Origin: a virus
Lineage: Duplodnaviria > Caudoviricetes
Strand: one strand, 5' to 3'
Virus record (IMG/VR): IMGVR_UViG_3300037692_000675
Location: 1-56,984 of that record
Length of the DNA: 56,984 nucleotides
The notes beneath the pieces were generated by a model. The model was not told where the DNA came from and did not search any database. It saw nothing but the letters and a program-made list of their open reading frames with translations. Shown one piece after another: positions 2,435 to 56,972 of the stretch. The translations under genes were made by a program, and so were the position numbers. Within the stretch, counting starts at the first letter, position 1. Each line of letters begins with the position of its first letter.

Positions 2435-2484
2435 TGTGGATTCACAACGACTTGCGAGATTCGCATCCCCTTCGGCAAAGCCGC
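2435..2484 (+). mobile_element. relic left end of a related Mu-like element
   Basis: TGTGGATTCACAACGACTTGCGAGATTCGCATCCCCTTCGGCAAAGCCG aligns with the prophage left end TGTAGATTCGCCAATTCTTTGCGAAATTCTCATTTTATTCAGTAAGCCG and contains TTCGCATC-N5-CGGCAAA (2460..2479). Confidence 0.6.
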
Positions 2485-3785
2485 TCGGCCGCGATCCGCC
2501 GCGCCTGCAGCTCAAGCTCGTGCATCTCCTGCGGCGACCGCAGCGCCGGCCGCTGCTCCATGACGCCGTCCAGCACCACCTCGAGCGCCGCCACATTGCC
2601 CGCCAGCGAGAACTCCTCCCGGATGCGCTTCTGCCCGCCCTTGATCGCCTTCGCCCGGGTCCGCTTGTCCCGCAGCAGCTTCAGCGCCCCGGCGGCCATC
2701 GCGTCCGTGTCGCCCACGTCCACCGCGATCGCCAGGCCGCGCAGCACCTCCGCACACCCGCCCGCGAACGTGCTCACGATCGGCACACCCGCCGCCATCG
2801 CCTCCAGGAGCACCATCCCCAGGCCCTCCCAATCGCTCGGGTGCACCATCACGTCCGCGGCCGCGTACGCGAGCACGACCTCGTCATGGGGCAGCATGTA
2901 GTGCCAGGCGTCCACGCCCCACCGCAGCCCGATCTGCTGGCCCAGGCGCACGAAGTACTCGCTCGCCAGGCACGTCCCGACCATGAGCAGTTGCAGGTCC
3001 GGCTGCTGCTCGCGGGCCTTCACGAAGGCCTTCATGGCGTCCTCAGGCCGCTTCTCGGCGCTGAACCGCCCGCAGTACAGCATCACCGGCGCGTCCGGCT
3101 GCAGCCCAAACCGCCGCCGCGCCTCCGCCCGCCGCTCGCTCGCCTGCCCGTACCGCTCATACTTGATCGCGTTGCGGATGACCGTCGCCGGCGCATGGTC
3201 CGGCCGGTGGACCTCGATCTGCCGCAGCGTCGTCTCGCTGACCGCCACAATGGCCTGGCTGGGCATCGCCCACGAGTTCCAGCACCCGTAGCCGTGCCAG
3301 TACTCGACGATCGGGATCCCGTGCATGTGGGTGACCCAGAACGGCCCCCACGCGCACGAGATGATGAAGGCGTCATACTCCCGCTCCATCAGGAACCGCT
3401 GGAAGCCCGCGCACTGCTCGATCGGCGTGAAAGGCCCGGTCCGCTCCTGCGGGGTAAACGCCTCGAAGCCCTCGTTGAGCACGATCAGCTCATCGAACGC
3501 CTCGGCGAGGGGCACGAACGTGTCCAGCGCCTGCCACACGTAGGCATCCACAATGTACTTCTCCCGGCTCAGCCCCTCGGCGATGTCCCGGTTCACGGTC
3601 TCGACGCCCCCGCCGCACAGGTAGCTCCAGAAGATGCCCACACGCTTCCCCCGCCCGCCCCGCTGCCCTCTGATGACGCATGCCGTCGTCGCGTGGGCGC
3701 GCGTGTCCTCACGCGCGCGATTCGTCCGACACACCCGCGCCTCCCTCACCACACCCTTGTCCGTCCGGTGCACCAGCGTTTTCAT
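2442..3785 (-). CDS. GT4 (GT-B) glycosyltransferase, outer copy
   Basis: GGGVET, CGRFSAEKRP, PSDWEGLGMVLLEAMAAGVP motifs; nearly identical to 6813..8147. Confidence 0.9.
   Translation of the reverse strand: MKTLVHRTDKGVVREARVCRTNRAREDTRAHATTACVIRGQRGGRGKRVGIFWSYLCGGGVETVNRDIAEGLSREKYIVDAYVWQALDTFVPLAEAFDELIVLNEGFEAFTPQERTGPFTPIEQCAGFQRFLMEREYDAFIISCAWGPFWVTHMHGIPIVEYWHGYGCWNSWAMPSQAIVAVSETTLRQIEVHRPDHAPATVIRNAIKYERYGQASERRAEARRRFGLQPDAPVMLYCGRFSAEKRPEDAMKAFVKAREQQPDLQLLMVGTCLASEYFVRLGQQIGLRWGVDAWHYMLPHDEVVLAYAAADVMVHPSDWEGLGMVLLEAMAAGVPIVSTFAGGCAEVLRGLAIAVDVGDTDAMAAGALKLLRDKRTRAKAIKGGQKRIREEFSLAGNVAALEVVLDGVMEQRPALRSPQEMHELELQARRIAAERLCRRGCESRKSL
3689..3719 (+). repeat. REP-like hairpin family E (GCGTGGGCGCGCGTGTCCTCACGCGCG and GGGACCGCGGGCRTCYYGCCCGCG variants)
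   Basis: copies at ~3689 (in GT CDS), 4534, 4883; related hairpins at ~18788, 21200, 41617 (in CDS), 51392, 55266. Confidence 0.8.
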
Positions 3786-4513
3786 CGCAACCCCCCTGTC
3801 CGCGTCCACGAATACTCCAGGTCCGCCGTGCCGCCCGTCCAGCCTCCTCCCACCTCATCCGTCCGCAGGGCCATCACCCGGAACCGCGTCCCGTCCGTGC
3901 AGCTCGTGTCCAACAGGAAGATCACCCCCGGCGCCTCCGCGAATCGCGGTGGCTCTGCCCACCGGAACTCCTCCTCATGGTCCACCTCGATCGGCGCCAT
4001 CGCCCCTTCATCCAGCCCGTAGAAACCCTCCAGCACTCCGCTTCCGGACGTCTCGCCGATCTCCAGCCTAAAGCAGTTGCGGTCCACGCCGGGCGCGTTG
4101 TTGTCCACGCCCGTGACCTCGCCCGCCTCATCCAGCGTCATGGACCCCAGATACACCGCGCCGTCGGGCTTCTCTGGCGACAGTTGCGCCATGAACGCCA
4201 CCGCGCCGTCAGGCGCCGAGACGCTCGTGGTGTGTGCGAACACGAAGTTGACCGCATCGGCGATCAGCCCGGTCGCATCCTGGTCCGCGCTCGTCTCACA
4301 CCAGCACCCGGCCACCAACCCTTCGCCGGCCGCCACTTGCCCCTCCAGCGTCAGTTCCCATCCGGCGTGCGCGCCGTCGGCCAGCAGCTTCCGGATCACC
4401 TTGCCGACCACGCGGTCCACGGTCGCGGCCAGCCGGTTATGGTGGTCCGGCTCGATGATCTCATCGGTCACCACTCCGACCGCCAGCCCATAGTTCTCGC
4501 TTATCCCTGCCAT
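3782..4513 (-). CDS. putative tail/baseplate-associated protein of outer element
   Basis: N-half resembles 14109..15113 (NFVF/NYVH, VTGVDNN/VTAVDNS); C-half closely matches 8144..8473 (EGFYGL..FRVMALRTDEVGGGWTG..YSWTRTGGL). Confidence 0.65.
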   Translation of the reverse strand: MAGISENYGLAVGVVTDEIIEPDHHNRLAATVDRVVGKVIRKLLADGAHAGWELTLEGQVAAGEGLVAGCWCETSADQDATGLIADAVNFVFAHTTSVSAPDGAVAFMAQLSPEKPDGAVYLGSMTLDEAGEVTGVDNNAPGVDRNCFRLEIGETSGSGVLEGFYGLDEGAMAPIEVDHEEEFRWAEPPRFAEAPGVIFLLDTSCTDGTRFRVMALRTDEVGGGWTGGTADLEYSWTRTGGLR

Positions 4514-4577
4514 CTAGCCACTCTCCATCATCCGCGTGGGCGCCCGACCCCAAGGGTCGTCCGTGTCCTCACGCGCG

Positions 4578-4660: not shown

Positions 4661-4867
4661 CTAACCACTCACCACTCTGCCGTACCGTCCCCGCCCATAC
4701 AGCCCCCTCCGCAGCACGCCGCCCTCCGCCGTCATCCGCATCAGGAACCGATTGCCGCCGCCCATCGCCGCCGCACCGCTGCGCCCCGCGGCCGTCGTCG
4801 TCGCCCCCCTCAACGCCGGCCGCACCTGCCGATCCACTACCCGCCGCACAATCTGCACAATGTCCAT
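4661..4867 (-). CDS. small hypothetical protein of outer tail cluster
   Basis: MDIVQIVRRVVDRQV; positional counterpart of 15106..15330. Confidence 0.5.
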   Translation of the reverse strand: MDIVQIVRRVVDRQVRPALRGATTTAAGRSGAAAMGGGNRFLMRMTAEGGVLRRGLYGRGRYGRVVSG

Positions 4868-4945
4868 CCTACCCGCTCCCGTCGCGTGGGCGCGCGTGTC
4901 CTCACGCGCGCTACCGTTTACTCGCCCACTCGCCCACTCAACCAC

Positions 4946-5432
4946 TCACTCACTCCCCAGCCACCGCCCCTCCACCGTCGTCACCGCCACCTCCCGCGGC
5001 CGCCGCCGCACCCGGTGCCTTACTGCCTCCACGCGATACAGCTCCCCATCCACGCCCACCGCCTCGCCGCCGTGGATCCGCATCACCTGCCCGACCCGCA
5101 CCTCGGGCAAGAGCGGCGTCACCACCAGCGCATGTTCGGGCCGCCCGCTCAGCTCCTCCAGCCGCTCCATCGCGAGCTGGTTCACCGCCTCGCGGGTCGT
5201 CGCCCCGGCTACGGTCGTCACATCCATCTTTCGCCAGCCCACATAGCGCGCCGACTGCGGGTCATGCAGCGACGCCGCATCGAAACACGTGGACCGCATC
5301 GGCCGCCCCTTGTCATCCACCCCGCACACGACGACGTAGTTCGCGTACTCCTCGTGCGCCAGGCTCCGCCGCGTCCGCCGCACGCCCAGCACCTCCCCCT
5401 CGGCCCCCGGTGTCGGCGCCTCTGTCGCCCGC
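4946..5432 (-). pseudogene. 3' part of tail-type gene interrupted by the prophage
   Basis: joins in frame with 49553..51365 across the TSD (..VRWELYTR|ATEAPT..); homologous to C-terminus of 15388..17634. Confidence 0.9.
5428..5432 (+). repeat. target site duplication, left copy (CCCGC)
   Basis: identical to 49553..49557; fits Mu NY(G/C)RN target consensus. Confidence 0.92.
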
Positions 5433-5499
5433 TGTAGATTCGCCAATTCTTTGCGAAATTCTCATTTTATTCAGTAAGCCGTGCCGCTTTAATTGAGAA
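5433..5499 (+). promoter_or_regulatory. prophage left end with putative transposase-binding sites
   Basis: AT-rich; minus-strand TTCGCAAAGAATTGGCGAAT (5438..5457) and TTCTCAATTAAAGCGGCAC (5481..5499) resemble right-end repeats. Confidence 0.8.
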
Positions 5500-5521
5500 A
5501 AAGAACAGGACCGCAGCCTCG

Positions 5522-6166
5522 TCAGTCCAGTCGCCCATCACCCAATATCTGTCGCTCCACCTGCTTCCACGGCAGCGCGCTCGGATCAAGCCCCAAGTCC
5601 ACCAACAGATTCCCCAATACCTCCCTCGGGTGCGCTTCCAGCTCCTCCAGCGTCAGCCACCGCGCTCCCGGACAGCCCTGCGACGTCCGCACTCGCCGGA
5701 TGATCTCATTGCGCGCCTGATCCTCGTCGGCGGCGAACCCCACGCGCAGCCAGCTCCGCATTGTCGCCTCCAACTCGCGCTCGATGTAGACGATCTCGCA
5801 GCCTGGACACAGCTCCCGCAGCAGTGGCCACAGCATCGTGTACGCCGGCGACTTATCCCCGATGTACAGCTTCCCTGGCGCCAGGAGCACCCGAAGTCCC
5901 TCGAGCGCCGCCCGCGCGATCTCCTGCGGCCGCCAGCGCTGTGCCCAGTACTCGTCATAGCCCCACAGGTGCATCGTCTGCTCATAGACTGCTTCCCCGC
6001 AGTGCCAGATGATCGGCGCCGGCGGACCCTCGCACAGCGACATCAGCTTCGGCGCCACGTTGGCCTCATGGGTGCACAGCGCGACGTCCGGATGCTGAGC
6101 CAGACACCACGCCAGTAGCTTCGTGCCCGTCCGCCCCGCGCCGCTCACGAACAGCCATCGCGTCAT
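5522..6166 (-). CDS. sulfotransferase family protein
   Basis: LFVSGAGRTGTKLL (5'-PSB loop), LAQHPDV, GDKSP, IVYIER...SW. Confidence 0.8.
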   Translation of the reverse strand: MTRWLFVSGAGRTGTKLLAWCLAQHPDVALCTHEANVAPKLMSLCEGPPAPIIWHCGEAVYEQTMHLWGYDEYWAQRWRPQEIARAALEGLRVLLAPGKLYIGDKSPAYTMLWPLLRELCPGCEIVYIERELEATMRSWLRVGFAADEDQARNEIIRRVRTSQGCPGARWLTLEELEAHPREVLGNLLVDLGLDPSALPWKQVERQILGDGRLD

Positions 6167-6816
6167 GGCGTCACCTTCCGCAGGATGGCGTAGCGCCGTC
6201 GCCCGCCCCAGATCGCCGGTGTGATCCGCGTGAGCGCCAGGCCATGCCGCCGCTCGATGTCGGCCCAAATGTCCGCCGGCAGCGGGCAGATCGGCCAGTC
6301 GGCCGCTTGCCCTGGTTGCGGACCGTCCCCAGGCCAGAAGTCCATGCTCAACAGTCCGCCCGCGCACAACCAGCGCCGCGCATGATCCAGGATGATGTCG
6401 AGCTCAGACACCCCCTGATGGATAAAAAAGCTGGTGCCGAAGATGATGTCGAAGCCATTGTCCCAGGCGGCTTCCGCCTGCCAAACCGTGTGCGAAAAGA
6501 CGACATCCTCCCACTCCCGATAGCGTCCGCGCGCCACCTGCACGGCCACGCGGCTATGGTCCAGCCCCCAGTATCGTCCGCCCGCCGCCGCGACGTGGGC
6601 GGCGCAGCGCCCCACTCCGCACCCCAACTCCAACACCTGCGCGTCTTTGACCATGGCGCGAGGCACCAGCAGCTCCGTCTCCCAGAACAGCTCGTCGGAC
6701 TGCTCCTCGGCATCACACCACAACTGCGCCCCCCGCGCGTTCCACAGGTCCACTGTCGCTCTGTCCCAGGCGGCCAACTGCCCCTCCGTCACGTCCTGCC
6801 CAAAGATGTCGATCAT
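6163..6816 (-). CDS. class I SAM-dependent methyltransferase
   Basis: VLELGCGVGR, GLDHS, FDII, LCAGG motifs; ATGA overlaps with both neighbours. Confidence 0.85.
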   Translation of the reverse strand: MIDIFGQDVTEGQLAAWDRATVDLWNARGAQLWCDAEEQSDELFWETELLVPRAMVKDAQVLELGCGVGRCAAHVAAAGGRYWGLDHSRVAVQVARGRYREWEDVVFSHTVWQAEAAWDNGFDIIFGTSFFIHQGVSELDIILDHARRWLCAGGLLSMDFWPGDGPQPGQAADWPICPLPADIWADIERRHGLALTRITPAIWGGRRRYAILRKVTP

Positions 6817-8147
6817 CGCTTCTTTGCCTTCTTCCCGACCTGCGCGGCCGCGATCCGCCGCGCCTGCAGCTCGAGCTCGTGCATCTCCTGGGGTGACCGC
6901 AGCGCCGGCCGCTGCTCCATGACGCCGTCCAGCACCACCTCGAGCGCCGCCACATTGCCCGCCAGCGAGAACTCCTCCCGGATCCGCTTCTGCCCGCCCT
7001 TGATGGCCTTCGCCCGGGCCCGCTTGTCGCGCAGCAGCTTCAGCGCGCCGGCGGCCATCGCGTCCGTGTCGCCCACGTCCACCGCGATCGCCAGGCCGCG
7101 CAGCACCTCCGCGCACCCGCCCGCGAACGTGCTCACGATCGGCACGCCCGCCGCCATGGCCTCCAGGAGCACCATCCCCAATCCCTCCCAGTCGCTCGGG
7201 TGCACCATCACATCTGCGGCCGCGTACGCCAGCACCACCTCATCATGGGGCAGCATGTAGTGCCACGCATCCACGCCCCAGCGCAGCCCGATCTCCTGCC
7301 CCAGCCGCACGAAGTACCCGCTCGCCAGGCACGTCCCGACCATCAGGAGCTGCAGGTCCGGCTGCTGCTCGCGGGCCTTCACGAAGGCCTTCATGGCGTC
7401 CTCAGGCCGCTTCTCGGCGCTGAACCGCCCGCAGTACAGCATCACCGGCGCGTCCGGATGCAACCTGAACCGCCGTCGCGCCTCCGCCCGCCGCTCGCTC
7501 GCCTGGCCGTACCGCTCGTACTTGATCGCGTTGCGGATCACCGTCGCCGGCGCGTGCTCTGGCCGGTGGACCTCGATCTGCCGCAACGTCGTCTCGCTGA
7601 CCGCCACAATGGCCTGGCTGGGCATCGCCCACGAGTTCCAGCACCCGTAGCCGTGCCAGTACTCGACGATCGGGATCCCGTGCATGTGGGTGACCCAGAA
7701 CGGTCCCCACGCGCACGAGATGATGAAGGCGTCATACTCCCGCTCCATCAGGAAGCGCTGGAAGCCCGCGCACTGCTCGATCGCCGTGAACGGCCCGGTC
7801 CGCTCCTGCGGGGTGAAGGCCTCGAACTCCTCGTTGAGCACGATCAGCTCATCGAACGCCTGTGCCAGCGGCAGGAACGTGTCGAGCGCCTGCCACACAT
7901 AGGCGTCCACGATGTACTTCTCCCGGCTCAACCCCTCGGCGATGTCCCGGTTCACGGTCTCCACGCCGCCCCCGCACAGGTAGCTCCAGAAGATGCCCAC
8001 ACGCTTCCCCTGGCCGCCCCGCGCGCCCGGGATGACCAATGGGCCCACGGTGCCTTCCGGCGCCGCAGTGGGCTTCCTGGCGAAATTGATGACCCTGGGC
8101 TGGCTGACGACGCCCTTGCTCGTCCGGTGCACTACGGTCCTGTTCAC
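6813..8147 (-). CDS. GT4 (GT-B) glycosyltransferase, prophage copy
   Basis: EGLGMVLLEAMAAG (EX7E) and GRFSAEK motifs. Confidence 0.9.
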   Translation of the reverse strand: MNRTVVHRTSKGVVSQPRVINFARKPTAAPEGTVGPLVIPGARGGQGKRVGIFWSYLCGGGVETVNRDIAEGLSREKYIVDAYVWQALDTFLPLAQAFDELIVLNEEFEAFTPQERTGPFTAIEQCAGFQRFLMEREYDAFIISCAWGPFWVTHMHGIPIVEYWHGYGCWNSWAMPSQAIVAVSETTLRQIEVHRPEHAPATVIRNAIKYERYGQASERRAEARRRFRLHPDAPVMLYCGRFSAEKRPEDAMKAFVKAREQQPDLQLLMVGTCLASGYFVRLGQEIGLRWGVDAWHYMLPHDEVVLAYAAADVMVHPSDWEGLGMVLLEAMAAGVPIVSTFAGGCAEVLRGLAIAVDVGDTDAMAAGALKLLRDKRARAKAIKGGQKRIREEFSLAGNVAALEVVLDGVMEQRPALRSPQEMHELELQARRIAAAQVGKKAKKR

Positions 8148-8473
8148 TTCAAGCCCCCTGTCCGCGTCCAGCTATAATCCAGGTCCGCGTAGGCGTACCC
8201 CGTCCAGCCGCCGCCGACCTCATCGGTCCGCAGCGCCATCACCCGAAACTGGCTGCCGCCCGTGTAGCTGCAGTCCAGCAGATACGCCACACCGGGCGCC
8301 TCGGCGAACCGGGGCGCCTCCGCCCAGTGGAAGTCCCCGTCCACCAGGTGCTCGACCTCGATCGGCACCATCGCGCCCTCCGGCAGCCCATAGAACCCCT
8401 CCAGCGTGCCCGACCCCTCGATGGTCTCGGTGTTGTCCGCCCGGTCCCAGTGCAGCGTCTCGTGCGCCATCAT
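8144..8473 (-). CDS. small hypothetical protein, probably tail-associated
   Basis: translationally coupled to both neighbours; homologous to C-half of 3782..4513. Confidence 0.7.
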   Translation of the reverse strand: MMAHETLHWDRADNTETIEGSGTLEGFYGLPEGAMVPIEVEHLVDGDFHWAEAPRFAEAPGVAYLLDCSYTGGSQFRVMALRTDEVGGGWTGYAYADLDYSWTRTGGLK

Positions 8474-11400
8474 GACACCCTTGTCCGCGTGATCGTGAAG
8501 GCCCGGTCGGGCCAGCCCGGCCCCTGCTGCTCGCGCCCCGCCTCGGCGATCTCCACCCGGTGGATGGCCGCGCCGGTCGCCGTCTGCACCGCGGCGAAGA
8601 GCTGCTCGGCCCCGTTGGCCTCGGCCGTCACCAGGTCATTGACCCCGACCGCGTCCTCCAGCCCCAGCGACTGCACCCACCCGCCGTTGCCCTGGCGCCA
8701 CAGGTACTGCCCGCCGGTGCCGATGCCTCCCGCCCACAGCCACCCGTCCATGACCGCCAGCCCCCGCAGCTCGTCCCACCCGAAGTTCTGGTCCAGCGCC
8801 CACGCCGTCAGCTTGCGGTACAGCTTGCCACTGTCCCCGCTCCCCGCGTAGATGACCGTCCCATGCGCCGCGAGCCGCCGGATGACCGCCTCGCCCGTCG
8901 CGTGCTGCAGCGCCCAGGCCGTGCCCGAGAGCAGCAGCACGTCGCCGCCGTCCGTCCCGGCCATCAGCCCCTGCCCGATCGCCGCCAGGGCCGTGATGTT
9001 GTCCTCGTGGACCGCGCTCCCCCGCAGCGACCGCTCCGCATACCGATACAGCTTGCTCCCCCCCGCCGCCAGCGTCGCCGCGATCGCCAGGTCGTCTCCG
9101 GCCACCGCCAGCGCCGTGATCGCCGTCACGACGTCCGGGCGCGGGATCAACAGCCCCGCATCCAGCTCCCCGGTGTCGGTGTCAATCGCCTCGATCATCT
9201 CTCCCCACGCCACGTAGCACGTGCCCCCGAGCACCGCCATGTCCACCGGCTCGCTCGTGAGCCAGTCCAGGTCCCGCAGCAGCCCCAGCGCCCCGGTCGC
9301 CAGGTTCAGCCGCCACACCTGCGCCGGCTCGGTGGCCAGGGCGTAGAGTATCCCGTCCGCCACCCCCAGCCGGATCACGTTCGCCGCCGAGATGGCCCAG
9401 CGCGCCGCCGTCTGCCGGGGCGTCTTGCACATCATCCACTCAATGGTCCGCCCCTGGGGCGTCACGCTGTGCGGCCGCCCTGGCCGCTCGACGATCCGCA
9501 TGTCCCCCCAGGTGTGGCTGCCGCCCGGCACGGCGTACCCCACCTGCAGGTTGTACAGCTCGCTGATGTCGTAGGAGGAAAGATCGCGCGGGTAGAGCAC
9601 CTCGCAGCTCTCCATGAAGATGTCGCCGAAGTCGCTGCTATCGGCGTTGATCGGCACGTTGTCGGCGTCGGTCCCGAGCTGCCCCGTCCAGCACACCCGC
9701 ACCTGGTCCGCCTTGGTGTTCACCAGGTTCACGGTGATCGTGTCGTTGCCTTCCTGCAGCGCCACGTCCCACGCCCGCACCATGATCTCGTGCTCACCGT
9801 TGGCCCAGGTCCCGCTGGCCCAGGTAAACGTCTGCTCCACCCCATTGGCCGGCGCGTCGATGGTCTGCTGCAGCATCCCGTCCACGTACAGCCCCATCTT
9901 CCAGATCCCGACCTCGTCGGTCGCCGTCGCCGTGATTTCCACCGCCCCCGCCACGCTCGCCGCGTCCGCCGGCGCCGTGATGACCACCACCGGCGGGTCG
10001 CCGGCCGCGGGTCCGCCCGCGTCGTACACCACCTGGTGGCTGTCGCTGTCCGTCTCGGCCCCGCTGGTCAGCCGCGCCAGCAGCGTGTACTCGGCCTCCG
10101 CCAGCCCCTCGGGCATCGTCAGCGCCTCGGCATAGGTCCCGCCGCCCGCCACGATCGTCCGCGCCGCGCTCAGCAGCGTGTAGCTGTTCCCGCCGCCGAT
10201 CAGCGTGATCTCCAGCGTCCCCGAGCCCGCCGCGAAGGCCCCGTAGTTGATCAGTGCCGTGAACTCCGGCCCCACCGTCGCCCCCTCCGCTGGCAGGTCC
10301 ACCGTCACCGTCGGCGTCGTCGGCGTCCCGCCGCCCCCTCCGCCGCTGCCCCCGCCGCCCCCGACGACCTCATCAATGATGATCCCCATCACCGCCGCCT
10401 CGGCCAGCACCACCCAGGTCCCGCTCACGTACTTGCCCTGCTGGGCCACCAGCGCCACGGCGACCTGCGCGCCCGACCATTGCATCGGCAGGCTCCAAAA
10501 CTCCGCCGCCCCGCCCTCCGCCACCGGCAGCCACTGGTAGGCATAGTCCACCAGCCTGACGAAGTGCTTCACCGCCCCGGTCAGGTGCCCGCTGACGTTC
10601 ACCTCGGGCCACGGCAGATGCACCCCCGTCTGCGGGCTGTCGATCGCGATCCCGTACGCCTCGTCAAAGACCAGGTCCAGCTCCGCCGGGTCCTCCGCCC
10701 CCATCGGCCACGTCGCCCCGTCGATGAAGGTGACGTTCTCCAGCCCCGCCTGCAGCGTGAACTCCTCCAGGTCGGCCATCTGCGCCGTATCCAGCGTCAG
10801 CGCCTTGGTCCCCGTCAGCGTCGGCAGCGTCAGCGACTTCGCCTTATCCCCGAGCAGATCCGCGCTCGGCGGCTTCATCTCAAAGTGCAGCACGCACGGC
10901 GTCGGCGCCCACCACTCATCGACCTCGACCCCCACCGTCACCTGCGTCGTCTCGATGTGGGTGTCCGGCGCCGGGCTGGTGAAGCTCACCGCCGGCACGA
11001 ACATCGTGAAGCCCGCCGTATCGGTCGCCACCACGCTGCTGTCGCTCGCCTTCTGCAGCTCGAGCGTCAGCGCCTTGGCCCCCGCCGTCCCCAGGTTCCC
11101 CAGCCACGTCCCATCCTGCCCCCAGGGCACCTTGCAGGCCAGGGAGGCGTCGATGGTCCCCTCCCCGCCCTGCAGCCCGTACTCGGTGTGCCACACGTAC
11201 CCCTCGCACTTGAGCACGGCATAGTAGCCGCCGGTGATGCTGGGCGCTTCGAACTGGATGTCCAGGCTGGCCGGGCCGTCGCCCGAGACCCCCGTGTCCA
11301 TGTTCTTATAGCCGCCGCCGTCGTCGCCGTACTTCGAGTAGCGGTGCTTCGTCGCGTCATCCCACAACAGCGCCTCGGCCGCATCCGCCCCGATCCGGAT

Positions 11401-12012: not shown

Positions 12013-12211
12013 CCTCTCTCCACAAAATCGAAGAGCCGCCTAACGTCCACGCCCGGCAAGGGAACGAGGTCGCTGTATGGCGGCTCTCCGAAAGCGCAAA
12101 GACCTCGTTTGGGACAGGTCACTGTCCACCATGCCTTGCCGGGCACTCCGAGTTTGCGCTTTCACGAGAGCGATGTCAAGCTGCCGCCGTTGCCGTCTGC
12201 CGCCGCCGTCC

Positions 12212-12259
12212 GCGTCCCGGAGGGACGCTTCTCCCAGTCGGGGGTTTCAACCCCCGACT
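12212..12259 (+). repeat. REP-like family C (GCGYCCCGGAGGGRCGC..GGGGTTTCAACCCCCG)
   Basis: copies at ~12212, 21237, 37934, 38794 (in CDS), 44586 (in CDS), 51517, 55398; same orientation. Confidence 0.9.
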
Positions 12260-12293
12260 GCCTGCCCCGCCCGCCGTTGCCGTCTGCCGTCCC

Positions 12294-12325
12294 CTGACCT
12301 CTGACCTCCGCCCTCTGACCTCTGC
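12294..12325 (+). repeat. 7-mer tandem repeat family (CTCTGAC/CTCTGAN)n
   Basis: similar runs at ~15355, 22687, 25575, 27920, 28950, 44372. Confidence 0.8.
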
Positions 12326-12327
12326 CG

Positions 12328-14019: not shown

Positions 14020-14108
14020 CGCTCTCCGCCGTTTGCCGTTCGCCGTTCCCCCCTCCCCTAAGAGACCCGCAGGGTCTCAGGAGGGGTGCCCCAGACCGTC
14101 GGGGTGGG

Positions 14109-41335: not shown

Positions 41336-41340
41336 ATGAC

Positions 41341-46811: not shown

Positions 46812-46820
46812 GAGCAATTC

Positions 46821-49297: not shown

Positions 49298-49387
49298 AGT
49301 AAGCAGGAAGGCGCCCGGCGCGCGCCGAACCGTCTGTCAGTCTGGGGTCGTCATCGGGGTGGTCTGGCCGTCGGTGAGGTGTTCTTT

Positions 49388-49552
49388 TTCGCAAATCGCG
49401 CGGCAAAGAAGCGTGTTGGTATTCGCAAAGTTCTCGGCAAATGGGCCCTCTCGCGGGGTCGCGCCTGACGGTCGTGCCTGCCGCAACCCCCATATTCGCA
49501 AGCCTCCCGGCAAATCCGACCTCCATATTCGCATCCCCAACGCACAATCACA
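49388..49552 (+). promoter_or_regulatory. prophage right end with four putative transposase-binding repeats
   Basis: TTCGCAA(A/G)-N5-CGGCAAA at 49388, 49422, 49495; degenerate copy at 49528; terminal ACA. Confidence 0.85.
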
Positions 49553-49557
49553 CCCGC
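49553..49557 (+). repeat. target site duplication, right copy (CCCGC)
   Basis: identical to 5428..5432. Confidence 0.92.
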
Positions 49558-51365
49558 GTATACAGCTCCCACCGTACCGTGTTGTCGCACGCCCCGGTCA
49601 GCGTCCCATCGTGGGCGATCACATCCGCCGCCGTCCGCTTCTGCCGGCAATACCGGCACGTCTTGCGGAACGCCCCGACCTCATCGAAGTAGATCGCCGC
49701 CTCATGATCGAACCGCGCGACCTCCTCGAGAAACTCCGCCCACGACCGCCCCGGCTCCACCTGCCACGCCGGCTCCTCCACCGTCCCCGTGGTCATGACG
49801 GTCCCGGTGTCCTCCAGATCCTGCTCGCTCTCGGGCACGCCGCACCGCCCGAGCACCCACCGGAACACGTCGCGCACCAGCCACCCGTCGAACACCGGCG
49901 TGCGCCCATCGGCCTTCTCATCCCGCAGCCGCACCATCGGGTCGAGCACACTGATGACGGCCTCGCTCATCCCGCCGCCCGCCATCCGCACCGGCGGCTC
50001 GACCAGGTGCCCGTCCACGATCTGCCCGAGCGCCTCGCTCCCGTCGCTCATCCGCCACCCCAGCGCCAGGCTCGTCCGCCGGTTCTCCTGCAAGCCCGCA
50101 TGTTGCCCTCGCTGGTTATCCAGCGCCACGCGGTACTTTGCCGTCGGCTTATCCGCCGCGTGCTCGCCCTCGACTGCCAGCGCATCCGCCGACAGCTCCT
50201 GGTACGCCGGCTCGCCCACCGGCGTCAGCTCCGCCGCCTGCGCCACCTGCGCCGTCAGCCACTCCGGCGACACCCACGTCTCGAAGTCCACCTGCTCCCC
50301 CGTGTCCGGGTCAACCCCGACCTCCTCCTCGTGGTGCCGGTACGGGTTGATCTGCACCTGCCATGACCGCTCGGTCTCGCTCAGCCCTTCCCGCCCGGCC
50401 GTGTCGTCAATGATGACCGGCGTCGCCAGGACCGCGTGGTCATCATCCATGACCGGGATCATCCGCCCCTCGACCAGTACCGCGCCTCCTGATTCCTGCG
50501 TCAAAAACCCCGCCTCGATCGCCGGACTCTGCACCGTCGCCGGTACCATCTTCATCGGCAGGAACGACAGCGCCCACTGCCCGGCGTTGTGCCACGCCGT
50601 CACCTTCCCGCTCTTGACCTCCACGGGCCCGTGATCCTCATACACCCACACCGCCTGCGCGAACGCATCTGTGGACACCGCCAGCTTCCCGCGCAGCACC
50701 CCGACCCACATCAGCATCCGCTGCCCGCGCGCCACGCCCTCCAGCGACCCCAGCGATACCTGGTAGCCCTCTCCCGTCAGTGTCCGCCACTCGCTCCCCA
50801 CCCGGTGCAGCGCCCGGATCGCCCCCGCGTACGGGATCAGCAGCACCCACTCCTCCTCCTCGCGGATGCCGAAGTGGATCTCGGTATACGGCGGCCGCGA
50901 CCAGTCATGATCCGACGCCGGCTCGGCCCGGTACAGCGAGAACGCGAACAGGGGATTGTGGGGCAGCGTGAACCGGCTCTCCAGCCCGGTCGTGCGGTTG
51001 CTGGTCCCATCGGACTGATAGAGCTTGATCTCCTGGTTCAGCCCCAGGCCCCGCAGTGCGTGCCACGTCCCGCCCACCGTCGCAAAGTGCCCCAGCCCGA
51101 TGCCCTGGGACGTATCCGCGAACGGCCGGCAGATCACGCTATTGATCTTCTTGTCCTGCACGTGCAGCGCGGTGGGGAAGGGCGCCGGGTAGCCTTGCAC
51201 CCACAGTCCCAGCTCGCCCGCATCCACAACGCTGACCCGCGCCTGTTCATCCTGCATGACGTCGCCGGCGATGTCATACTGCCCGAAGCCGTCATAGCGT
51301 ACCCGTGCTTCCGGCCCGGGCTCATACATGCGCACCCGCGCGATCGGATGTACTCGTGAACTCAT
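49553..51365 (-). pseudogene. 5' part of tail-type gene interrupted by the prophage
   Basis: ORF runs into prophage end; rejoins 4946..5427 to give 765 codons. Confidence 0.88.
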
Positions 51366-51592: not shown

Positions 51593-51901
51593 CTACAAAC
51601 TCCCCTCGAACACCCACGTCTCCCCATCGTCCCCGCTCACATACACATCAATGTCGGGCGTCCGCGCCACAGCCACCACCAGCCGCCGCCCCTGGCTCTC
51701 GGTCTTGATCAGCCCCGCCCGCGCCTCATCTGCCGCCGCTGCCACGAGCCTCTCCTCACTGCCGTCCACAAACCTCAGCCAGGTCTGCCCCCCATCCGCC
51801 GTCCTCCGGATGTACACCGCCCCCTCCCGATATCCGGTCAGATACACGATGCCGTTATGCTCCACCATCGTCGGATATGTCAGCCCACCCACCGTCGCCA
51901 T
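51593..51901 (-). CDS. small Asp-box (BNR) protein
   Basis: GGAGG RBS; TADGGQTW and SGDDGETW. Confidence 0.65.
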   Translation of the reverse strand: MATVGGLTYPTMVEHNGIVYLTGYREGAVYIRRTADGGQTWLRFVDGSEERLVAAAADEARAGLIKTESQGRRLVVAVARTPDIDVYVSGDDGETWVFEGSL

Positions 51902-51997: not shown

Positions 51998-54900
51998 TCA
52001 ACCACTCAACCACTCCTCCCCATCATCCACCGACACCCACCCCACCGTATCCCCCTCGCGCTGCCAGAACAGCCTCAGCCGCCCCCCCTCATCCTTCTCC
52101 GCGCACGGCTCCGTGTTCTCACCCTCACTCGTGATCTGCCGGGCCTCCTGCCACGGGTTGGCCAGGCCTTCCCGCCGCTGCATCCAGATGTTCCCCTCGC
52201 GCGCGTAGAAGATGAACATTTGCTCGACCGCATCGTCCATCAGGTGCGGCCCGCTCGCTCCGCCGCTCCAGCCGAGCTGCAGCGCCGCCGGCGTCGCCCG
52301 CCGCTCCTCGACCGGCGTCCCCAGCGGGCTCGCCAACAGCCCCACATCGTTCACGACCGTGAACCGGCACGCCGCCCCTGCCGGCTCGACCACCCGCGCC
52401 CCCGTCACTGCCACATACAGTCCGCACCCGCGGTACGGACTCGCCTTCCGCTCCGCGGCCCACTTGCCGACCGCCTTCAGCGCCACCACATCACTCAGCG
52501 GCCTGTCCGCGTTTGGCCCCCGCGTTCCCGCCGGGATCACCACCCGCACGGTCTCCTGGCTGCCATTCTCCAGCCGGCAGTCCAGCTCGACGGTCACCTC
52601 CGCCGCCTGGCTGTACTCGGTCGGAAACACGAGCTTCATCTGCGTCACGCCCAGGTTCCGGTCCACCTCCGGCAGCGCCCCGAACCACGCCAGGTCATGC
52701 CCCGCCGTGAACGCTGGCGTGCCTTCACTATCGAACCGCCCGAACCCCAGCCCCTCCGCAACCTCGTCCACATGCTGTGCGAACCACCGCAACGCATTAG
52801 TCGCCTGCCCGGCCCCGCTCTGGGTCAGGTAGTTGTCATTCTCCTCATACAGATCCGGCCGCCAGTGGTACCGGATGTCATACCTCCGACTCCCCCCACC
52901 CCTCGGCACTACCACGGATTCCAACCGGTGACCGCTGCCTTGCCCCCCCTCCCCCGTGGGGAGGGGGCCGGGGGGTAGGGCGGGCGTCGTAAAATGTGTC
53001 CTCCCATCCATCGCGTTCCCCATCCCGAACGCCATCGCACACTGCCAGCAACACCCTCGCACAAACCCCGCCGCGCTCGGGTCCCGCCACAGCGGCCCGC
53101 CGCAGTACGGGCACACCAGGTCCGCGAAGCACGCCCTCCGCGCCGCGCCGCCGATCGCCGTCACCTGTGTGAACCACTCATGCGCCCCGAACTCCAGCCC
53201 GATCCGCGCCGCCTCCGGCAGCTCCAGCCCGATGGCCTCCCCGCACCCGGTCACGACCCCGCCGTGTACCTTGCCGCCGATCAGGAACTTCGCCTCCGGA
53301 TAGAACCCCGCCGCCCGGTACTGTCCTGGCAGCGTCTCATACTCCTCGAACGACTGCGCCTCCAGACAGAACTCATTCAGCAGCACTTCCCTTGGCGTGC
53401 GCAGCCGGTAGTACCGCAGCTGCGGCCCGCCGACGATCAGCTCGTTGATGTCCTCGACATGTCGGTACTTCGGCAACGTCTCGACCGTCACCCAGCCCCC
53501 GTACGCCGCCTCCGTGGTCCCGAACTGCGCCTCCGTCTCGATGTCCTCGACGACGATCTCATCCTGCACGTACTGGAAGTTCGCGTGCCCCCGGTCGCCC
53601 TTGCGCCACGCCTCCGGCTTGTACATCTCGGCGAACCCCGCGTACGCCCGGGCCCCCAGCACCACATCCGAGTAGGGGAAACCCAGCACCGGCACCGACC
53701 CCCACTGCGGGTCATGTACCCACGGGTCGCCCCCGAACCCCTCCGCCGGAATCTCCGCCTCCCAGTATCCGCCGCCATCCGTCGTCGCGATCGCCTCGCC
53801 GACCACGCCGCTCTCATAGTCAATCGGCACGATGGCGATCCCCGCCGCCGGCACCCCCATCCGCTCATACACTCGCCCGGCGATCAGGTTGCCGCCCTGG
53901 TCGTAGAAGTCCATCACGCCCATGCCGACCGTGGCCGTGCCGCCTTCCTGCACCCCTACGATCTGCCGCGCACACCCCCACTCCGACTCCCATTCCCCCC
54001 ACCCGTTCAGCTTGAACTGCACCACCCCATGCTCGCCCGTCGGCAACCCCTCGACCGTGACGCTCCCCTCCGCGCCGATCAAGTAGTTCCCGCCGCTCTC
54101 ATCCAGCGTCCCGACCTTCACCCACGCCCCCGGTTCGCCGCTCACCACCAGCTTGCCGCTCAAGATGTCAATGACCGCCTCGGTCCCTTCGCTCAGTTCC
54201 GCCTTCCGCCCCAGGTACGCCATCGCTAGCCGCGTCAACTTCCGCGGCGGCGCCTGGCTCGCTGTCTCCTCACTGTCATCCCGCCGGTCCCCCTCGCGCT
54301 GGTAGATCGCGCCGTGCCCCTTCGGGCAGATGAACGCCCACCGCCCGTCCTCGCCGGTCATGATCGGCGCAGTCACCAGCGCCCCCTCGACCCACGTCTC
54401 CAGCGTGTCCGACCAGATCAGCTCGTTGTACTCGAGGCTGTCCCAGAATATCGCCGCCCCGCCCGGCCCCTCGACGACACCTTCCAGGCTGACATTCGCG
54501 CCCTCCTGCGGCACGCCGTCATGCAGCACCCGCCCCCGCACCCAATACCCCATGACACAGGTCTCACTCAGGGGTGCCGCCGCGTACCCCACCCCTTGTA
54601 TCCTCCGCCCCCAGTACGGGTCATCCACCATCACCGCATACTGCGGCTCCAGCTCGAACTCGCCGCCCACGAACCCCAGCTGTCCGGTCGCGAGCTTCTG
54701 GATCAGGTACACCGCCACATTCGGCAGCATCACCTCCGGCGTCCGCGCCTTGTACACCATCACCTCGATGGTCCCGGCCGCCGTCGCGAAGCTCGCACTC
54801 CCGCCGCTGGTGTACTGCCGCTGCACGGTGACGCCGGCCTCGCCTCCCAGCCGGATGACCTCCGGCTCCCACCCGCCATCCTCCCCGGCCTGCAGCAGCC

Positions 54901-55222
54901 CCCACGCCTCCTCCAGCTCCCCGACCTCGCTCCACGTCCGCACCGGCGCCCCATGCAAGAGCCCCAACAGCTGGCCCAGCGCCACGACCGCCTGCCCCTT
55001 GTCCCGCTCCTCCCCTGCCGTCCGATCCTCCGCCTCCCAATCGAACGCATGGCTCCCATCATCCCGCCAGTTGAGTTCGATGAGCGCCAGGATGCAGTAG
55101 CTCAGCACGGCCTTCAGCGCGGCGGTATTGGCCGGATTGTCTTGGGCCTCTGCCTCTTTGGCCCGGATGTCATTGACGAGCCCTTCCAGCCTCTCACCCA
55201 GCCCGGGATTCACCTGCCCCAT
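51998..55222 (-). CDS. large multidomain protein of outer tail-like cluster
   Basis: beta-sandwich-like repeats (VRGRVL..GANV; IAGRVY..TTDGGGYW), CPYC..CWQC, C-terminal SVDDGEEW; in-frame REP at ~52942. Confidence 0.7.
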   Translation of the reverse strand: MGQVNPGLGERLEGLVNDIRAKEAEAQDNPANTAALKAVLSYCILALIELNWRDDGSHAFDWEAEDRTAGEERDKGQAVVALGQLLGLLHGAPVRTWSEVGELEEAWGLLQAGEDGGWEPEVIRLGGEAGVTVQRQYTSGGSASFATAAGTIEVMVYKARTPEVMLPNVAVYLIQKLATGQLGFVGGEFELEPQYAVMVDDPYWGRRIQGVGYAAAPLSETCVMGYWVRGRVLHDGVPQEGANVSLEGVVEGPGGAAIFWDSLEYNELIWSDTLETWVEGALVTAPIMTGEDGRWAFICPKGHGAIYQREGDRRDDSEETASQAPPRKLTRLAMAYLGRKAELSEGTEAVIDILSGKLVVSGEPGAWVKVGTLDESGGNYLIGAEGSVTVEGLPTGEHGVVQFKLNGWGEWESEWGCARQIVGVQEGGTATVGMGVMDFYDQGGNLIAGRVYERMGVPAAGIAIVPIDYESGVVGEAIATTDGGGYWEAEIPAEGFGGDPWVHDPQWGSVPVLGFPYSDVVLGARAYAGFAEMYKPEAWRKGDRGHANFQYVQDEIVVEDIETEAQFGTTEAAYGGWVTVETLPKYRHVEDINELIVGGPQLRYYRLRTPREVLLNEFCLEAQSFEEYETLPGQYRAAGFYPEAKFLIGGKVHGGVVTGCGEAIGLELPEAARIGLEFGAHEWFTQVTAIGGAARRACFADLVCPYCGGPLWRDPSAAGFVRGCCWQCAMAFGMGNAMDGRTHFTTPALPPGPLPTGEGGQGSGHRLESVVVPRGGGSRRYDIRYHWRPDLYEENDNYLTQSGAGQATNALRWFAQHVDEVAEGLGFGRFDSEGTPAFTAGHDLAWFGALPEVDRNLGVTQMKLVFPTEYSQAAEVTVELDCRLENGSQETVRVVIPAGTRGPNADRPLSDVVALKAVGKWAAERKASPYRGCGLYVAVTGARVVEPAGAACRFTVVNDVGLLASPLGTPVEERRATPAALQLGWSGGASGPHLMDDAVEQMFIFYAREGNIWMQRREGLANPWQEARQITSEGENTEPCAEKDEGGRLRLFWQREGDTVGWVSVDDGEEWLSG

Positions 55223-55447
55223 GCGATCCTGCCTCTCTGCCTCGTGTGTGTGTCGTGCCGCTATCGGGACCGCGAAGCGGACCGCAGGTCCGCAGGGCGT
55301 CTCGCCCGCGCGCCGTTGCCGTTCCCCTCTCCGGAGCGAAGCGAGGGAGAGGGGTAGGGGGGAGGACGCCGTTCAGCCTTTGCCTTCCGCCGTTGATGCG
55401 TCCCGGAGGGACGCTTGTCTCAGGCGGGGGTTTCAACCCCCGCCCGG

Positions 55448-56137
55448 CTACCGACTCAACTCCAGCCTCAGATCCTCTTCCTCATCAAACTCCGCTCGCC
55501 GTCGCCGTTCGCCGTTCCCCTCTCCGGAGCGCAGCGAGGGAGAGGGGTAGGGGTGAGGATGTCGTTCGTCGGGTCGTTGCTGTTCGCCGTCCCCCCCTCC
55601 CTGTTCAGGGAGGGGGGGCAGGGGGGGTAGGCGGTCGTTGCCGTCTGCCGTCCCCCTCCCCTGTGGGGAGGGGGTGCCCTGCGCAGCAGGGCGGGGGTAG
55701 GCGCCGTCGGAGGGGCCGGCTATTAGCCGGCCCGTCGTTCGGATCTCCTCCCCCCAACCCTCCTCCTCGACCGCCTCTGCCTTCCGCCTCTGCCTTCCCC
55801 CCTCGCGCTCCTCGACTCTTGCCTTCAGCCTCTCCCGCAACTCCCCCAGCCGCCTCGCCTCCCGCCGCCGCCGTTCGGGGTAGGGGATAGGGGACACGCC
55901 CTCTGCCTGCCGCCTCTCCTCAACTCTCAGCTCCCCGTCTCGCTCGCGTCTCGCCTCGGCCTCCCCGCCTCCGCCCCCAACCGTCGCCGCCTCGACTCCC
56001 TCCACCACCACCGCCTCAACCTCAACTGCCTCCGCCGCCTCCGCCTCCACCATCCCCACCACTGCCTTCGCCATCGCCAGCATCCTGGGCAGCACCGGCG
56101 CCGGCGCGCGCCGCACGATCTCATGGCTCGCCCTCAT
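55448..56137 (-). CDS. charged hypothetical protein in tape-measure position, carrying stacked in-frame repeats
   Basis: ATGA-coupled to chaperone extension; open frame through 55500..55740 repeat stack. Confidence 0.5.
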   Translation of the reverse strand: MRASHEIVRRAPAPVLPRMLAMAKAVVGMVEAEAAEAVEVEAVVVEGVEAATVGGGGGEAEARRERDGELRVEERRQAEGVSPIPYPERRRREARRLGELRERLKARVEEREGGRQRRKAEAVEEEGWGEEIRTTGRLIAGPSDGAYPRPAAQGTPSPQGRGTADGNDRLPPLPPLPEQGGGDGEQQRPDERHPHPYPSPSLRSGEGNGERRRRAEFDEEEDLRLELSR

Positions 56138-56469
56138 GCTTGCCGCGCCCCTTTGCCCTGCCAGAATGCCGCCCACAGCTCCACCTTCCACGCCGGCTGC
56201 CGCGCATACGCCTCACCCGTGGGCAACTCCCCGGTCGCCTCATGCAGCCGCAGCTCCCGCATCACCGCCAGCACGAGCACCGCCCACGCCGGCACGCGCA
56301 CCGCCTCGGCCTCACTCCCCGCCAGCAGCGCCGCCGCCTCCCGCGCCTCCGTAAAGTCCACGCCCTCGCGCAGCCTCACCGCCGCCTCCGGCAGCTCCCC
56401 CGCGAGCAGCTCTGCCGGCCCCGCCATCAGGCCTTGCTCCTGCCGCCCGAGCTGCCTCAGCCTTTTTTT
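56134..56469 (-). CDS. -1 frameshift extension of outer tail assembly chaperone
   Basis: A AAA AAA (56463..56469) just before stop; -1 frame gives KKRLRQ...LPTGEAYARQPAW. Confidence 0.65.
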   Translation of the reverse strand, partial: KKRLRQLGRQEQGLMAGPAELLAGELPEAAVRLREGVDFTEAREAAALLAGSEAEAVRVPAWAVLVLAVMRELRLHEATGELPTGEAYARQPAWKVELWAAFWQGKGARQA

Positions 56470-56972
56470 GCGGTCTCGATCACCGCCCGCTGCTCCGGCA
56501 GCCGCCGGTTCACGCGCTCGATCTCGCGGTGCAGCCACTCCGCCAGCGCCGGCTGCATCCGCCCCAGCACCTCCGCCGCCGCGCCGTTGCCGTTGTCGTT
56601 CCCCTCTCCGGAGGCCGAAGGCCGAGGGAGAGGGGTAGGGGTGAGGACGCCGTTGGTTTCCGCACCCCGCCCGATCCTCCGCTCCACAATCGTCCCATCA
56701 CTTTGCACTTCCGGCACACACGCCTCCACCACACAGTGCTCATGGTCATACTCGGCCATGAGCCGCAGATCATACGTCCGCCGCACGCGCACCGCGGGCT
56801 CTTGCAGCCCGCCCGTGACCAGTTCATACTCCTCGGCCAGCCCCAGGCTTTCGCGTTCCAGGGCCTCAGCCTCAGTCAGCGCCCTCAGCCTCACCCACGG
56901 CCTGCATTCCCATCCAGGCACTTCCACCGGCGCCTCGATCACGATGCTCCTCTCGACGCCCGGCCCACACAC
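56457..56972 (-). CDS. tail assembly chaperone-like protein of outer element
   Basis: GAGGAG RBS, GTG start, WVRLRALT..WLHREIERVN, slippery site at 3' end; in-frame family A repeat. Confidence 0.65.
   Translation of the reverse strand: MCGPGVERSIVIEAPVEVPGWECRPWVRLRALTEAEALERESLGLAEEYELVTGGLQEPAVRVRRTYDLRLMAEYDHEHCVVEACVPEVQSDGTIVERRIGRGAETNGVLTPTPLPRPSASGEGNDNGNGAAAEVLGRMQPALAEWLHREIERVNRRLPEQRAVIETAKKG

Follow-up and report, generated by a model that had tools for sequence, protein, structure and literature searches.

The 56,984-bp sequence IMGVR_UViG_3300037692_000675 (~68% G+C), a single contig catalogued as a virus record and analysed here over its full length (the window), is a piece of an Armatimonadia chromosome in which a transposable siphophage related to Mu, complete at 44,120 bp (positions 5433..49552), interrupts the large tail protein gene of a second set of phage-like genes. 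The account of this arrangement that we consider probable combines a domesticated phage-derived cluster, a Mu-like insertion, the exchange of a cassette and a near-random landing. Members of the Armatimonadia would have received a phage-derived cluster of ~22 kb, which extends from a terminase to an endolysin gene, by vertical inheritance and maintained it under purifying selection, while the lack of lysogeny and replication genes from this cluster in the four genomes examined would mark it as a domesticated element of the gene transfer agent (GTA) or PBSX type. The gene for the large tail protein was split in two at residue ~602 when a complete temperate Mu-like siphophage transposed into it with a 5-bp duplication. 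Phage and cluster have distantly related tube, large tail and holin proteins, and one cassette, made up of the last ~87 codons of a fibre gene and a GT4 glycosyltransferase gene, is common to both at 88% DNA identity. The cluster would normally make particles, and its tail could presumably no longer be built in this strain.

The insertion is resolved to the base. The left terminus of the phage begins TGTAGATT at position 5433 and its right terminus finishes AATCACA at 49552, and copies of the pentanucleotide CCCGC directly flank the element on the left (5428..5432) and on the right (49553..49557). A 5-bp duplication and TG..CA termini are hallmarks of Mu, and the element furthermore encodes MuA, MuB, Gam, a Mu-type portal and gp36. 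Repeats resembling transposase sites occur in inverted orientation at the two ends, with one copy of TTCGCAAR in the left end (5433..5545), namely TTCGCAAA at 5450-5457 on the minus strand, and three in the right end (49330..49552) on the plus strand (49388, 49422 and 49495), as well as a degenerate copy near the right tip. This motif was observed seven times in the window against an expectation of 1.48, with 4/7 copies at the phage ends, and the right-end repeats are conserved in a relative of the phage (L006). The word GCGAA is found at a distance of 21 nt from both termini, and longer inverted matches pair 5438-5457 with 49422-49442 and 5482-5541 with 49350-49405.

The interrupted gene is encoded on the minus strand. 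Its 5′ part (49553..51365; ~604 codons) shares 63-84% identity with the intact genes of three Armatimonadia metagenome-assembled genome (MAG) contigs (L001-L003) and its present frame ends 5 nt within the phage end, while the 3′ part (4946..5432; ~162 codons) lies beyond the left terminus. In silico excision of 5433-49557 yields a single 771-codon open frame on the minus strand, with the joint at about residue 602 of the ~764-residue large tail protein, and this restored frame aligns end to end with the uninterrupted genes of L001, L002 and L004. The inner element was thus inserted by Mu-type transposition, and the nested structure is real to the base. An earlier note, made from the letters of the window, had proposed a prophage nested in an outer tail gene, with outer and inner genes in the same order and strand; the termini, the CCCGC duplication and the restored frame bear out the former at base resolution, and both sets of genes are confirmed to lie in that order on the minus strand.

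Were the nesting instead an assembly chimera, in which a Mu-like phage was joined to an unrelated contig, its joints would have had to arise independently. Both junctions, however, fall at the identical point of one gene and carry the same 5-bp duplication, and excision gives a full-length frame colinear with its homologues. In the public run that contains the junction, and which is the probable source, depth is ~10 on either side of the right junction, and as such similar on both sides. A chimera would accord with the behaviour of the Logan contigs of this run, which stop at the right junction (breaking at 49525-49554), with none among the contigs listed spanning it by 31 nt on both sides; the run neither bridges nor contradicts the right junction and gives it no independent support, which weighs against our reading of the insertion. 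The break, which sits 2 nt past the phage right terminus, could reflect other junctions in the sample, such as the empty site or other insertions. As a matching duplication at two joints and a restored frame are not expected from independent joints, a chimera is very unlikely, to the point of being barely credible.

Genes in the window were called by third-position G+C content, the shadow open reading frames (ORFs) being too many for a plain ORF list, and 67 window ORFs were annotated against Pfam and PHROGs; no tRNA genes were found in the 56,984 bp. Besides the three MAG contigs, homologues of the interrupted gene are carried by two IMG/VR contigs (L004 and L005). Six loci on contigs of 90-391 kb display a single gene order over ~22 kb, although in G128 and G428 the contig stops before the head genes are reached. 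The cluster opens with genes for the large terminase, portal, S78 protease and HK97-type capsid, which precede those for a very large protein ending in an Ig-like region, the adaptor, the tube and the chaperone. Next come genes for a 1050-aa Asp-box protein, a small protein with two such boxes and the large tail protein, and the order closes with a small ORF, the fibre gene, two to three small genes, the holin gene and that for an amidase endolysin. The outer genes of the window correspond to the tail and lysis half of this cluster. Homologues of the outer chaperone gene follow the tube gene in the relatives, and portal, HK97-type capsid and adaptor genes are likewise found in G004, where the head genes precede the tail genes. 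In the four loci for which both flanks are available, housekeeping genes abut the cluster on both ends, including those for IlvD, acetolactate synthase, a LeuD-like protein, a prismane protein, Rrf2, rpmH, YidC, M16 and M48 peptidases and Usp. No match to integrase, repressor or replication families was found beside the cluster in 4/4 annotated genomes, where some flanking ORFs have no family match. The flanks are common to the close pair G086 and G128, and YidC is encoded downstream of the cluster in both G418 and G164. A far more distant contig, G005, adds large terminase, DNA polymerase, primase and endolysin genes; its large tail protein shares only 25% identity, and it represents a true phage relative with replication genes.

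The earlier note had called for a survey of the conservation of the outer cluster in the host clade, and this was undertaken with the intact large tail protein of L001 as query against 401 genomes sampled across the phylum (E≤1e-5) and against all 79 species genomes of the class (E≤1e-20). The gene is present in 50/79 class genomes and in 40/401 of the phylum set, mostly as one match per genome, usually full length, with 44-68% identity and no internal stop among the matches listed. Where the match is split (G173, G217, G307, G332 and G427) or truncated (G408 and G416), it invariably stops at the end of a contig and as such is uninformative on insertions. Among 24 carriers, pairwise identities of RpoB and of the large tail protein are correlated (Pearson 0.70; Spearman 0.32; 0/5000 Mantel permutations as high), and maximum-likelihood trees of the two proteins agree on the major groups and on the close pairs. 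An RpoB tree was also built of these 24 carriers with 25 of the 29 non-carriers (three lacked RpoB at the threshold and one was fragmentary; the other 26 carriers were not placed). All 24 placed carriers fall within one 40-genome clade (SH-like approximate likelihood-ratio test support: 100), while the nine deeper-branching genomes all lack the gene. The ratio of non-synonymous to synonymous substitution rates (dN/dS) is 0.10-0.32 in 6/6 close pairs, and the large tail gene thus evolves under apparent purifying selection. The survey showed broad conservation in the class, congruent with RpoB, with scattered absences.

Before the class survey the outer genes had been taken for another prophage of the ordinary kind, and they could still belong to an ordinary temperate siphophage, common in the class and bound to host lineages, in which case the window would represent polylysogeny. 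The cluster has all the virion and lysis genes of a phage, and the two IMG/VR contigs that carry it are classed as viral. Several observations furthermore weigh against clean vertical inheritance of the cluster, and the first two of these also sit easily with such a prophage. The flanking genes are not conserved between distant genomes, 29/79 class genomes have no match, and 16 of the 25 placed non-carriers are scattered within the carrier clade. On the RpoB tree, ten state changes are needed, eight of which are forced by well-supported branches, where shuffled labels average 16.6, and a host-restricted prophage lineage could in principle be the source of the co-divergence. As the genomes surveyed are MAGs of unknown completeness, loss and missing data are not separable. 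An ordinary prophage, however, would be difficult to reconcile with housekeeping genes that abut the cluster where an integrase, repressor or replication gene might stand, with mostly one match per genome across 50 species, with a tail protein tree congruent with that of RpoB and with the low dN/dS, while G005, alone among the relatives in having replication genes, is much more remote. We therefore read the cluster as domesticated, on account of the mostly single match per genome, the housekeeping flanks, the RpoB congruence and the low dN/dS, and consider an ordinary prophage unlikely.

A further proposal, that the cluster is a working GTA or similar phage-like particle which arose independently in the Armatimonadia, was kept throughout the diversification of the class and traded its receptor-binding end, made up of fibre tip and glycosyltransferase, with temperate phages of the same hosts, is possible but somewhat doubtful. 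Counting against a working particle, no small terminase was recognised in the cluster, and the gene at the tape-measure position encodes a short low-complexity protein, both of which are odd for a working siphovirus-type tail.

The earlier note had further claimed seven homologous pairs between the outer genes and the inner phage and had advised that they be checked by profile alignment. An all-against-all BLASTP comparison of 68 window proteins was combined with profile hidden Markov models of 19 cluster protein families, built from six other cluster copies and run on 51 phage proteins with hmmsearch. Four pairs are significant. The glycosyltransferases (genes at 2442 and 6813) share 91% identity over 440 aa, and the C-terminus of the fibre-like protein (3782) shares 74% identity over 90 aa with the product of the ORF at 8144 (fibre profile E-value: 1.1e-6). 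The large tail protein and the product of the phage gene at 15388 show 24% identity over 347 aa (E-value: 2e-7; profile E-value: 4.9e-13), and the holins (1 and 20783) 38% identity over 58 aa (E-value: 1e-5; profile E-value: 9.3e-13). The profiles add a further relationship, between the inner tube protein and the cluster tube of relatives (E-value: 1.2e-8), the outer tube gene lying beyond the window, so that 4/19 cluster family profiles (tube, large tail protein, fibre and holin) have significant phage matches. The outer holin matches the holin family phrog_6918 (E-value: 2e-8) and approaches the LL-H-type holin family PF09682 (22.0 bits against a cut-off of 24.9), while the inner holin has no direct family match.

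The remaining claimed pairs, for which shallow outer profiles were also aligned with single inner proteins by hhalign, are insignificant. No significant homology was found between the chaperones (hhalign E-value: 0.043; profile E-value: 0.41) or between the small ORFs at 4661 and 15106 (E-value: 0.099), and between the proteins encoded at 51998 and 17625 only the C-terminal S-x-D-x-G-x-x-W Asp-box motif aligns (E-values: 0.19 and 0.034). The first half of the fibre comparison, 3782 with 14109, is likewise not significant (E-values: 0.016 and 0.17). That three of the seven pairs show no significant homology, and half of a fourth also fails, counts against the account given above. Both chaperone genes do occupy a similar position and contain a slippery heptamer with an open -1 frame (GGGAAAC at 25139 in the phage; AAAAAAG at 56468 in the cluster), and, from this and the location of the gene after that for the tube, the proteins are identified as putative frameshift products of the G/GT type. 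The distant likeness of the tail and lysis parts may reflect shared ancestry among siphophage tails working on this host clade.

The glycosyltransferase and fibre-end pairs are of a different order. The cluster region 2483-4034 and the phage region 6842..8405 (minus strand), which takes in most of the ORF 8144-8473 and of the GT4 gene 6813-8147, are 88.3% identical over 1570 bp, against at most 38% protein identity for the other matched proteins of the two modules (24% for the large tail protein; 38% over 58 aa for the holin). In 60-nt windows the glycosyltransferase part is 82-100% identical (three windows at 100%), bar one poorly aligned window near the start, and the fibre-end part 70-77%. 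Likeness begins ~22 codons into the 109-codon phage ORF, which corresponds only to the last ~87 residues of the 243-residue cluster fibre protein, and as only this C-terminal end is matched, the phage fibre copy looks like a fragment. We infer from the two sequences that the cassette was exchanged recently between phage and cluster by recombination. In the closest cluster relative, L003, a GT4 gene also follows the fibre gene and is 63-64% identical to both window copies, while L001, L002, L004 and the six long loci have no GT4 gene after the fibre; G086 and G128 have a GT9 gene there. A glycosyltransferase gene after the fibre gene being native to this cluster branch favours transfer from cluster to phage, but both window copies are equally distant from that of L003, which leaves the direction undecided. 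The two copies are direct repeats 4.36 kb apart, and later gene conversion is therefore also possible. Capture of the cassette as flanking DNA of an older insertion in a fibre gene was considered and is given little weight, no relic end repeats being found near 8405-8480. Among the three readings offered in the earlier note, an exchange of parts with a domesticated tail particle comes closest, in light of the 50/79 genomes, the tree congruence, the dN/dS, the lack of lysogeny and replication genes in the four annotated genomes and the 88.3% identical cassette, with the amendment that the cluster encodes a full head, tail and lysis set rather than a tail only.

Mu-type elements insert nearly at random, and the landing of the phage in the tail gene is likely to be such an event and due to chance. 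CCCGC fits the loose Mu target pattern, N-Y-(G/C)-R-N, and the insertion at residue ~602 lies outside the stretch over which the two large tail proteins are alike (residues 99-436). Elsewhere in the surveyed genomes, every copy of the gene that lies on a continuous contig is uninterrupted, the split and truncated matches ending at contig ends. It may alternatively be that the phage prefers the cluster, as a hotspot of silent DNA for instance, or that lysogens with the cluster knocked out were favoured, for a particle with the same fibre end could compete for the receptor or kill the cell producing it. The cassette common to both at 88% DNA identity, with a phage copy that starts inside the fibre gene and is fragment-like, speaks of earlier contact, and the cluster has its own holin and amidase, so that particle production would presumably lyse the cell. 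Furthermore, Mu-type portals are rare in the class, with one among 52 genomes (G386) against 89/349 other sampled genomes of the phylum, which makes the coincidence look less ordinary, and the sole readable insertion lies in a target (~22 kb) well under 1% of class genomes of ~2-8 Mb. There is, however, only one case, which leaves the chance interpretation itself with n=1, and the argument from improbability rests on that single instance, which was picked out in hindsight from a very large scan. A landing that was not chance is accordingly improbable, and that the phage gains by disabling a particle with the same fibre end and receptor, and its position was selected, is more improbable again. 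Knockout of one phage by another, a second reading in the earlier note, describes the result, in that the large tail gene of the cluster is broken, but shows no sign of selection.

Both elements resemble known systems in part. Mu-like phages, and Mu itself for the transposition module, likewise possess a MuA with the Mu C-terminal domain, MuB, Gam, a Mu-type portal, a gp36-type adaptor, a Mu-I-type protease, TG..CA ends, inverted repeats and a 5-bp duplication, and D3112, B3 and RcapMu are Mu-like phages with siphovirus tails. In Mu, however, the repressor and transposase genes lie by the left end and are followed by one rightward late operon, whereas in the present phage they are central, with two divergent arms. 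The phage transposase also stands apart from known ones, with 15 of 50,697 phage records matched, all at 22-34% identity. GTAs include RcGTA of Rhodobacter and the independent BaGTA, VSH-1, Dd1 and VTA. The cluster resembles them in comprising head and tail genes without replication or lysogeny genes, in vertical inheritance within a large clade and in purifying selection, but differs in the holin and endolysin genes inside it. An NCBIfam scan of 20 cluster proteins of G418 matched no RcGTA-specific family, the matches being generic only (PBSX/HK97 portal, HK97 protease and HK97 capsid and, at the Ig-like end of one protein, rhamnosidase models).

PBSX, a conserved defective prophage of Bacillus, has a contractile tail and its own repressor. 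The cluster is likewise a conserved chromosomal phage-like set with its own lysis genes, and the best NCBIfam match of its portal is portal_PBSX (E-value: 4.7e-45; Bitscore: 154, below the family cut-off of 166), but its tail is tube-only, its tail chaperone is of the G/GT type, and a regulator was not seen next to the cluster. Insertions of Mu into resident prophages are known from classical genetics, and here too a transposable phage lies in resident phage-derived DNA with a target duplication; the target in this instance differs in being a putatively domesticated, clade-wide cluster with a recently exchanged cassette. A literature search, with supplementary files outside its scope, found neither a matching case of a nested transposable prophage nor a GTA described in the Armatimonadetes/Armatimonadota.

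The outer genes in the window are all on the minus strand. At its right-hand end the chaperone gene (56457..56984), cut by the window end, has its -1 frame open to 56134 and contains an in-frame copy of a hairpin repeat. It is followed by the gene for the low-complexity 247-aa protein in the tape-measure position (55448..56191), conserved with L002 only at its two ends, and by those for a 1074-aa protein ending in an Asp-box (51998..55222), 43-60% conserved among cluster copies, and a ~100-aa protein with two Asp-boxes (51593..51901), whose real start is at M33 of the listed ORF. A profile of the 1074-aa protein produced one match, which carries no weight (E-value: 0.83). Its homologue in L005 is matched in two pieces ~4.5 kb apart (10001-11686 and 16226-17365), with other ORFs between them. 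On the far side of the phage lie the small ORF (4661..4945), the gene for the 243-aa fibre-like protein (3782..4513), the last ~87 codons of which belong to the exchanged cassette, the GT4 glycosyltransferase gene (2442..3809), part of the same cassette (2483-4034), and the cluster holin gene (1..396), the stop codon of which constitutes the first three bases of the record. Glycosyltransferase genes occupy three slots in the clusters of G086 (L082 5552-6616 and 8666-9925; L083 5506-6561) and G128, with a GT4 gene after the portal, a GT9 gene after the capsid and another GT9 gene after the fibre, which suggests that the cluster often takes up sugar-transferase genes.

The large tail protein itself has no match in Pfam, PHROG, NCBIfam or PDB sequences; the outer protein also found none in the 50,697 phage records, nor in IMG/VR as a single query. 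An AlphaFold model of it is poor (mean predicted local distance difference test score: 43.7), and a model from a protein atlas resembles mostly unnamed clusters at template modelling (TM) scores of 0.51-0.59, one of which is labelled as a phage tail protein family. The same atlas gives TM scores of 0.74-0.77 with baseplate hub families of the gpD type (Phage_GPD-type), as measured on the smaller protein. The atlas scores offer a lead that the large tail protein may be a gpD-type tail-tip hub, in which case it would be essential for tail assembly.

The left arm of the inner phage is transcribed on the minus strand and encodes, from the centre outwards, protease, scaffold, capsid, tube, G/GT chaperone, tape measure, holin-like and large tail proteins, the GT4 glycosyltransferase and a sulfotransferase. 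The Mu-I-type protease (30209-31360), scaffold (28991-30115) and major capsid (27941-28840) genes are followed by those for the tail tube (25604..26449), a distant homologue of the cluster tube, the tail assembly chaperone (25052..25528), with GGGAAAC at 25139 and an open -1 frame, and the tape measure protein (22714..24792). Further outwards are genes for a holin-like protein homologous to the cluster holins (20783..21277), a 338-aa protein with a terminal Asp-box (17625..18641), only this motif being common with cluster proteins, and the homologue of the interrupted large tail protein (15388..17600), the start of which is uncertain as the ORF overlaps 17625-18641; the latter protein has no close relative in IMG/VR. 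A sulfotransferase-family gene (5522..6367) adjoins the left end, where the GT4 gene also lies (5522-8147). A block in the middle of the tail module (18782-21600) has likely accessory roles at the cell surface or in lysis and holds the holin-like gene, genes for small membrane proteins and one for an HAD-type phosphatase-like protein, which matches a phosphoheptose isomerase PHROG. Two more exact copies of TTCGCAAA are present in this arm, inverted and ~1 kb apart (21640-21647 and 22654-22661), where they flank the ORFs 21670-22122 and 22005-22643; their occurrence by chance is quite possible.

A helix-turn-helix repressor-like gene (32316..32960, minus strand) diverges from the gene for the MuA-type DDE transposase (33086..35152, plus strand), and the two lie centrally, at distances of 27 kb and 14 kb from the phage ends, with the virion genes distributed over two divergent arms. 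The transposase contains the Mu-transpos_C domain (PF09299; E-value: 1.3e-14, above the cut-off), an rve domain below the cut-off (E-value: 1.6e-4) and matches phrog_310 (E-value: 8e-59). The plus-strand arm continues with the genes for a MuB-type ATPase (35149..36060; phrog_296, E-value: 6e-27), a Gam-like protein (37265..37831; PF07352, E-value: 5e-21) and the large terminase (39620..41335), and a terminal group (45876..49297) comprising the genes for a gp36-type adaptor and a tail completion protein, then an unknown ORF and finally the Mu-type portal gene (47297-49297), which no further gene separates from the right end. In 13 of the 15 phage records with a transposase match, that match is located at most ~5 kb from the record end.

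Relatives of the phage are few. L006 has a portal of 72% identity and the same right-arm order, on a contig that stops ~35 bp short of the right terminus, while L013, a 2.2-kb contig, has a portal of 53% identity and the same last three genes; these were the only relatives found, and neither contig extends past the phage end. G386 displays the same right-arm order at 33-40% identity. As this order is common to L006, L013 and G386, it is not an assembly accident; distant Mu-type contigs (L014, L016, L017 and L020) have the usual order of portal, protease and capsid. A portal scan of metagenomes returned L013 as the sole closer relative, with all others at most 29% identical, a portal search of the 401 phylum genomes gave 90 hits, all at most 38% identical, and the window transposase has no match in G001-G003. 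On contig C10 of G386 (~28983-44565; L056 and L051), a compact element of ~15.6 kb carries repressor, MuA, MuB, Gam, terminase, adaptor, completion protein and portal genes, without capsid, protease or tail genes, and has inverted end repeats with host genes at its borders. A matching 5-bp duplication was looked for at this element and not found, and it may represent a deletion remnant or a satellite-like mini-Mu.

Three families of hairpin repeats are also dispersed in the window. The first, ~60-86 nt long with the core CCCCTCTCCGGAGCGAAGCGAGGGAGAGGGG, is scattered in the outer cluster (4577-4662, 51913-51998, 55306-55391, 55499-55584 and 56588-56660, and also 51480-51516). Two copies are read in frame, as the insert in the chaperone and within the low-complexity protein 55448-56191; the chaperone insert is absent in L001 and L004, while L002 has a different, shorter insert at that point. 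This repeat looks like a small mobile palindromic element tolerated by coding regions. A second family, CCCCTCCCCTGTGGGGAGGGG, is mostly intergenic in the inner phage (30764-30833, 36564-36624, 42818-42878, 43200-43269 and 43602-43649), with one copy in the outer cluster (52931-52978). The third is a double hairpin, CGCCCCGGAGGGGCG .. GGCGGGGGTTTCAACCCCCGCC, found in both phage arms and in the outer cluster (12211-12274, 21238-21301, 38795-38842, 44588-44635 and 55397-55460; partial at 37935 and 51517). Its copies at 12211, 21238, 51517 and 55397 are located at gene ends and are terminator-like, and the ones at 37935, 38795 and 44588 extend over the start or the end of a called ORF.

Few phages have been independently domesticated into GTAs, and each case is informative on the taming of viruses by bacteria. 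A candidate conserved across most species of a little-studied class would take the phenomenon into a new phylum, and it provides a concrete cluster to test. Within the group of the inner phage no other Mu-like genome was recovered complete in this analysis, and the layout of this phage is unusual. The window furthermore represents a natural experiment, a strain in which the cluster has been knocked out by a transposable phage. If the cluster is domesticated, as appears probable, the shared cassette would be direct evidence that such a cluster still trades with a live phage those parts which contact the cell surface.

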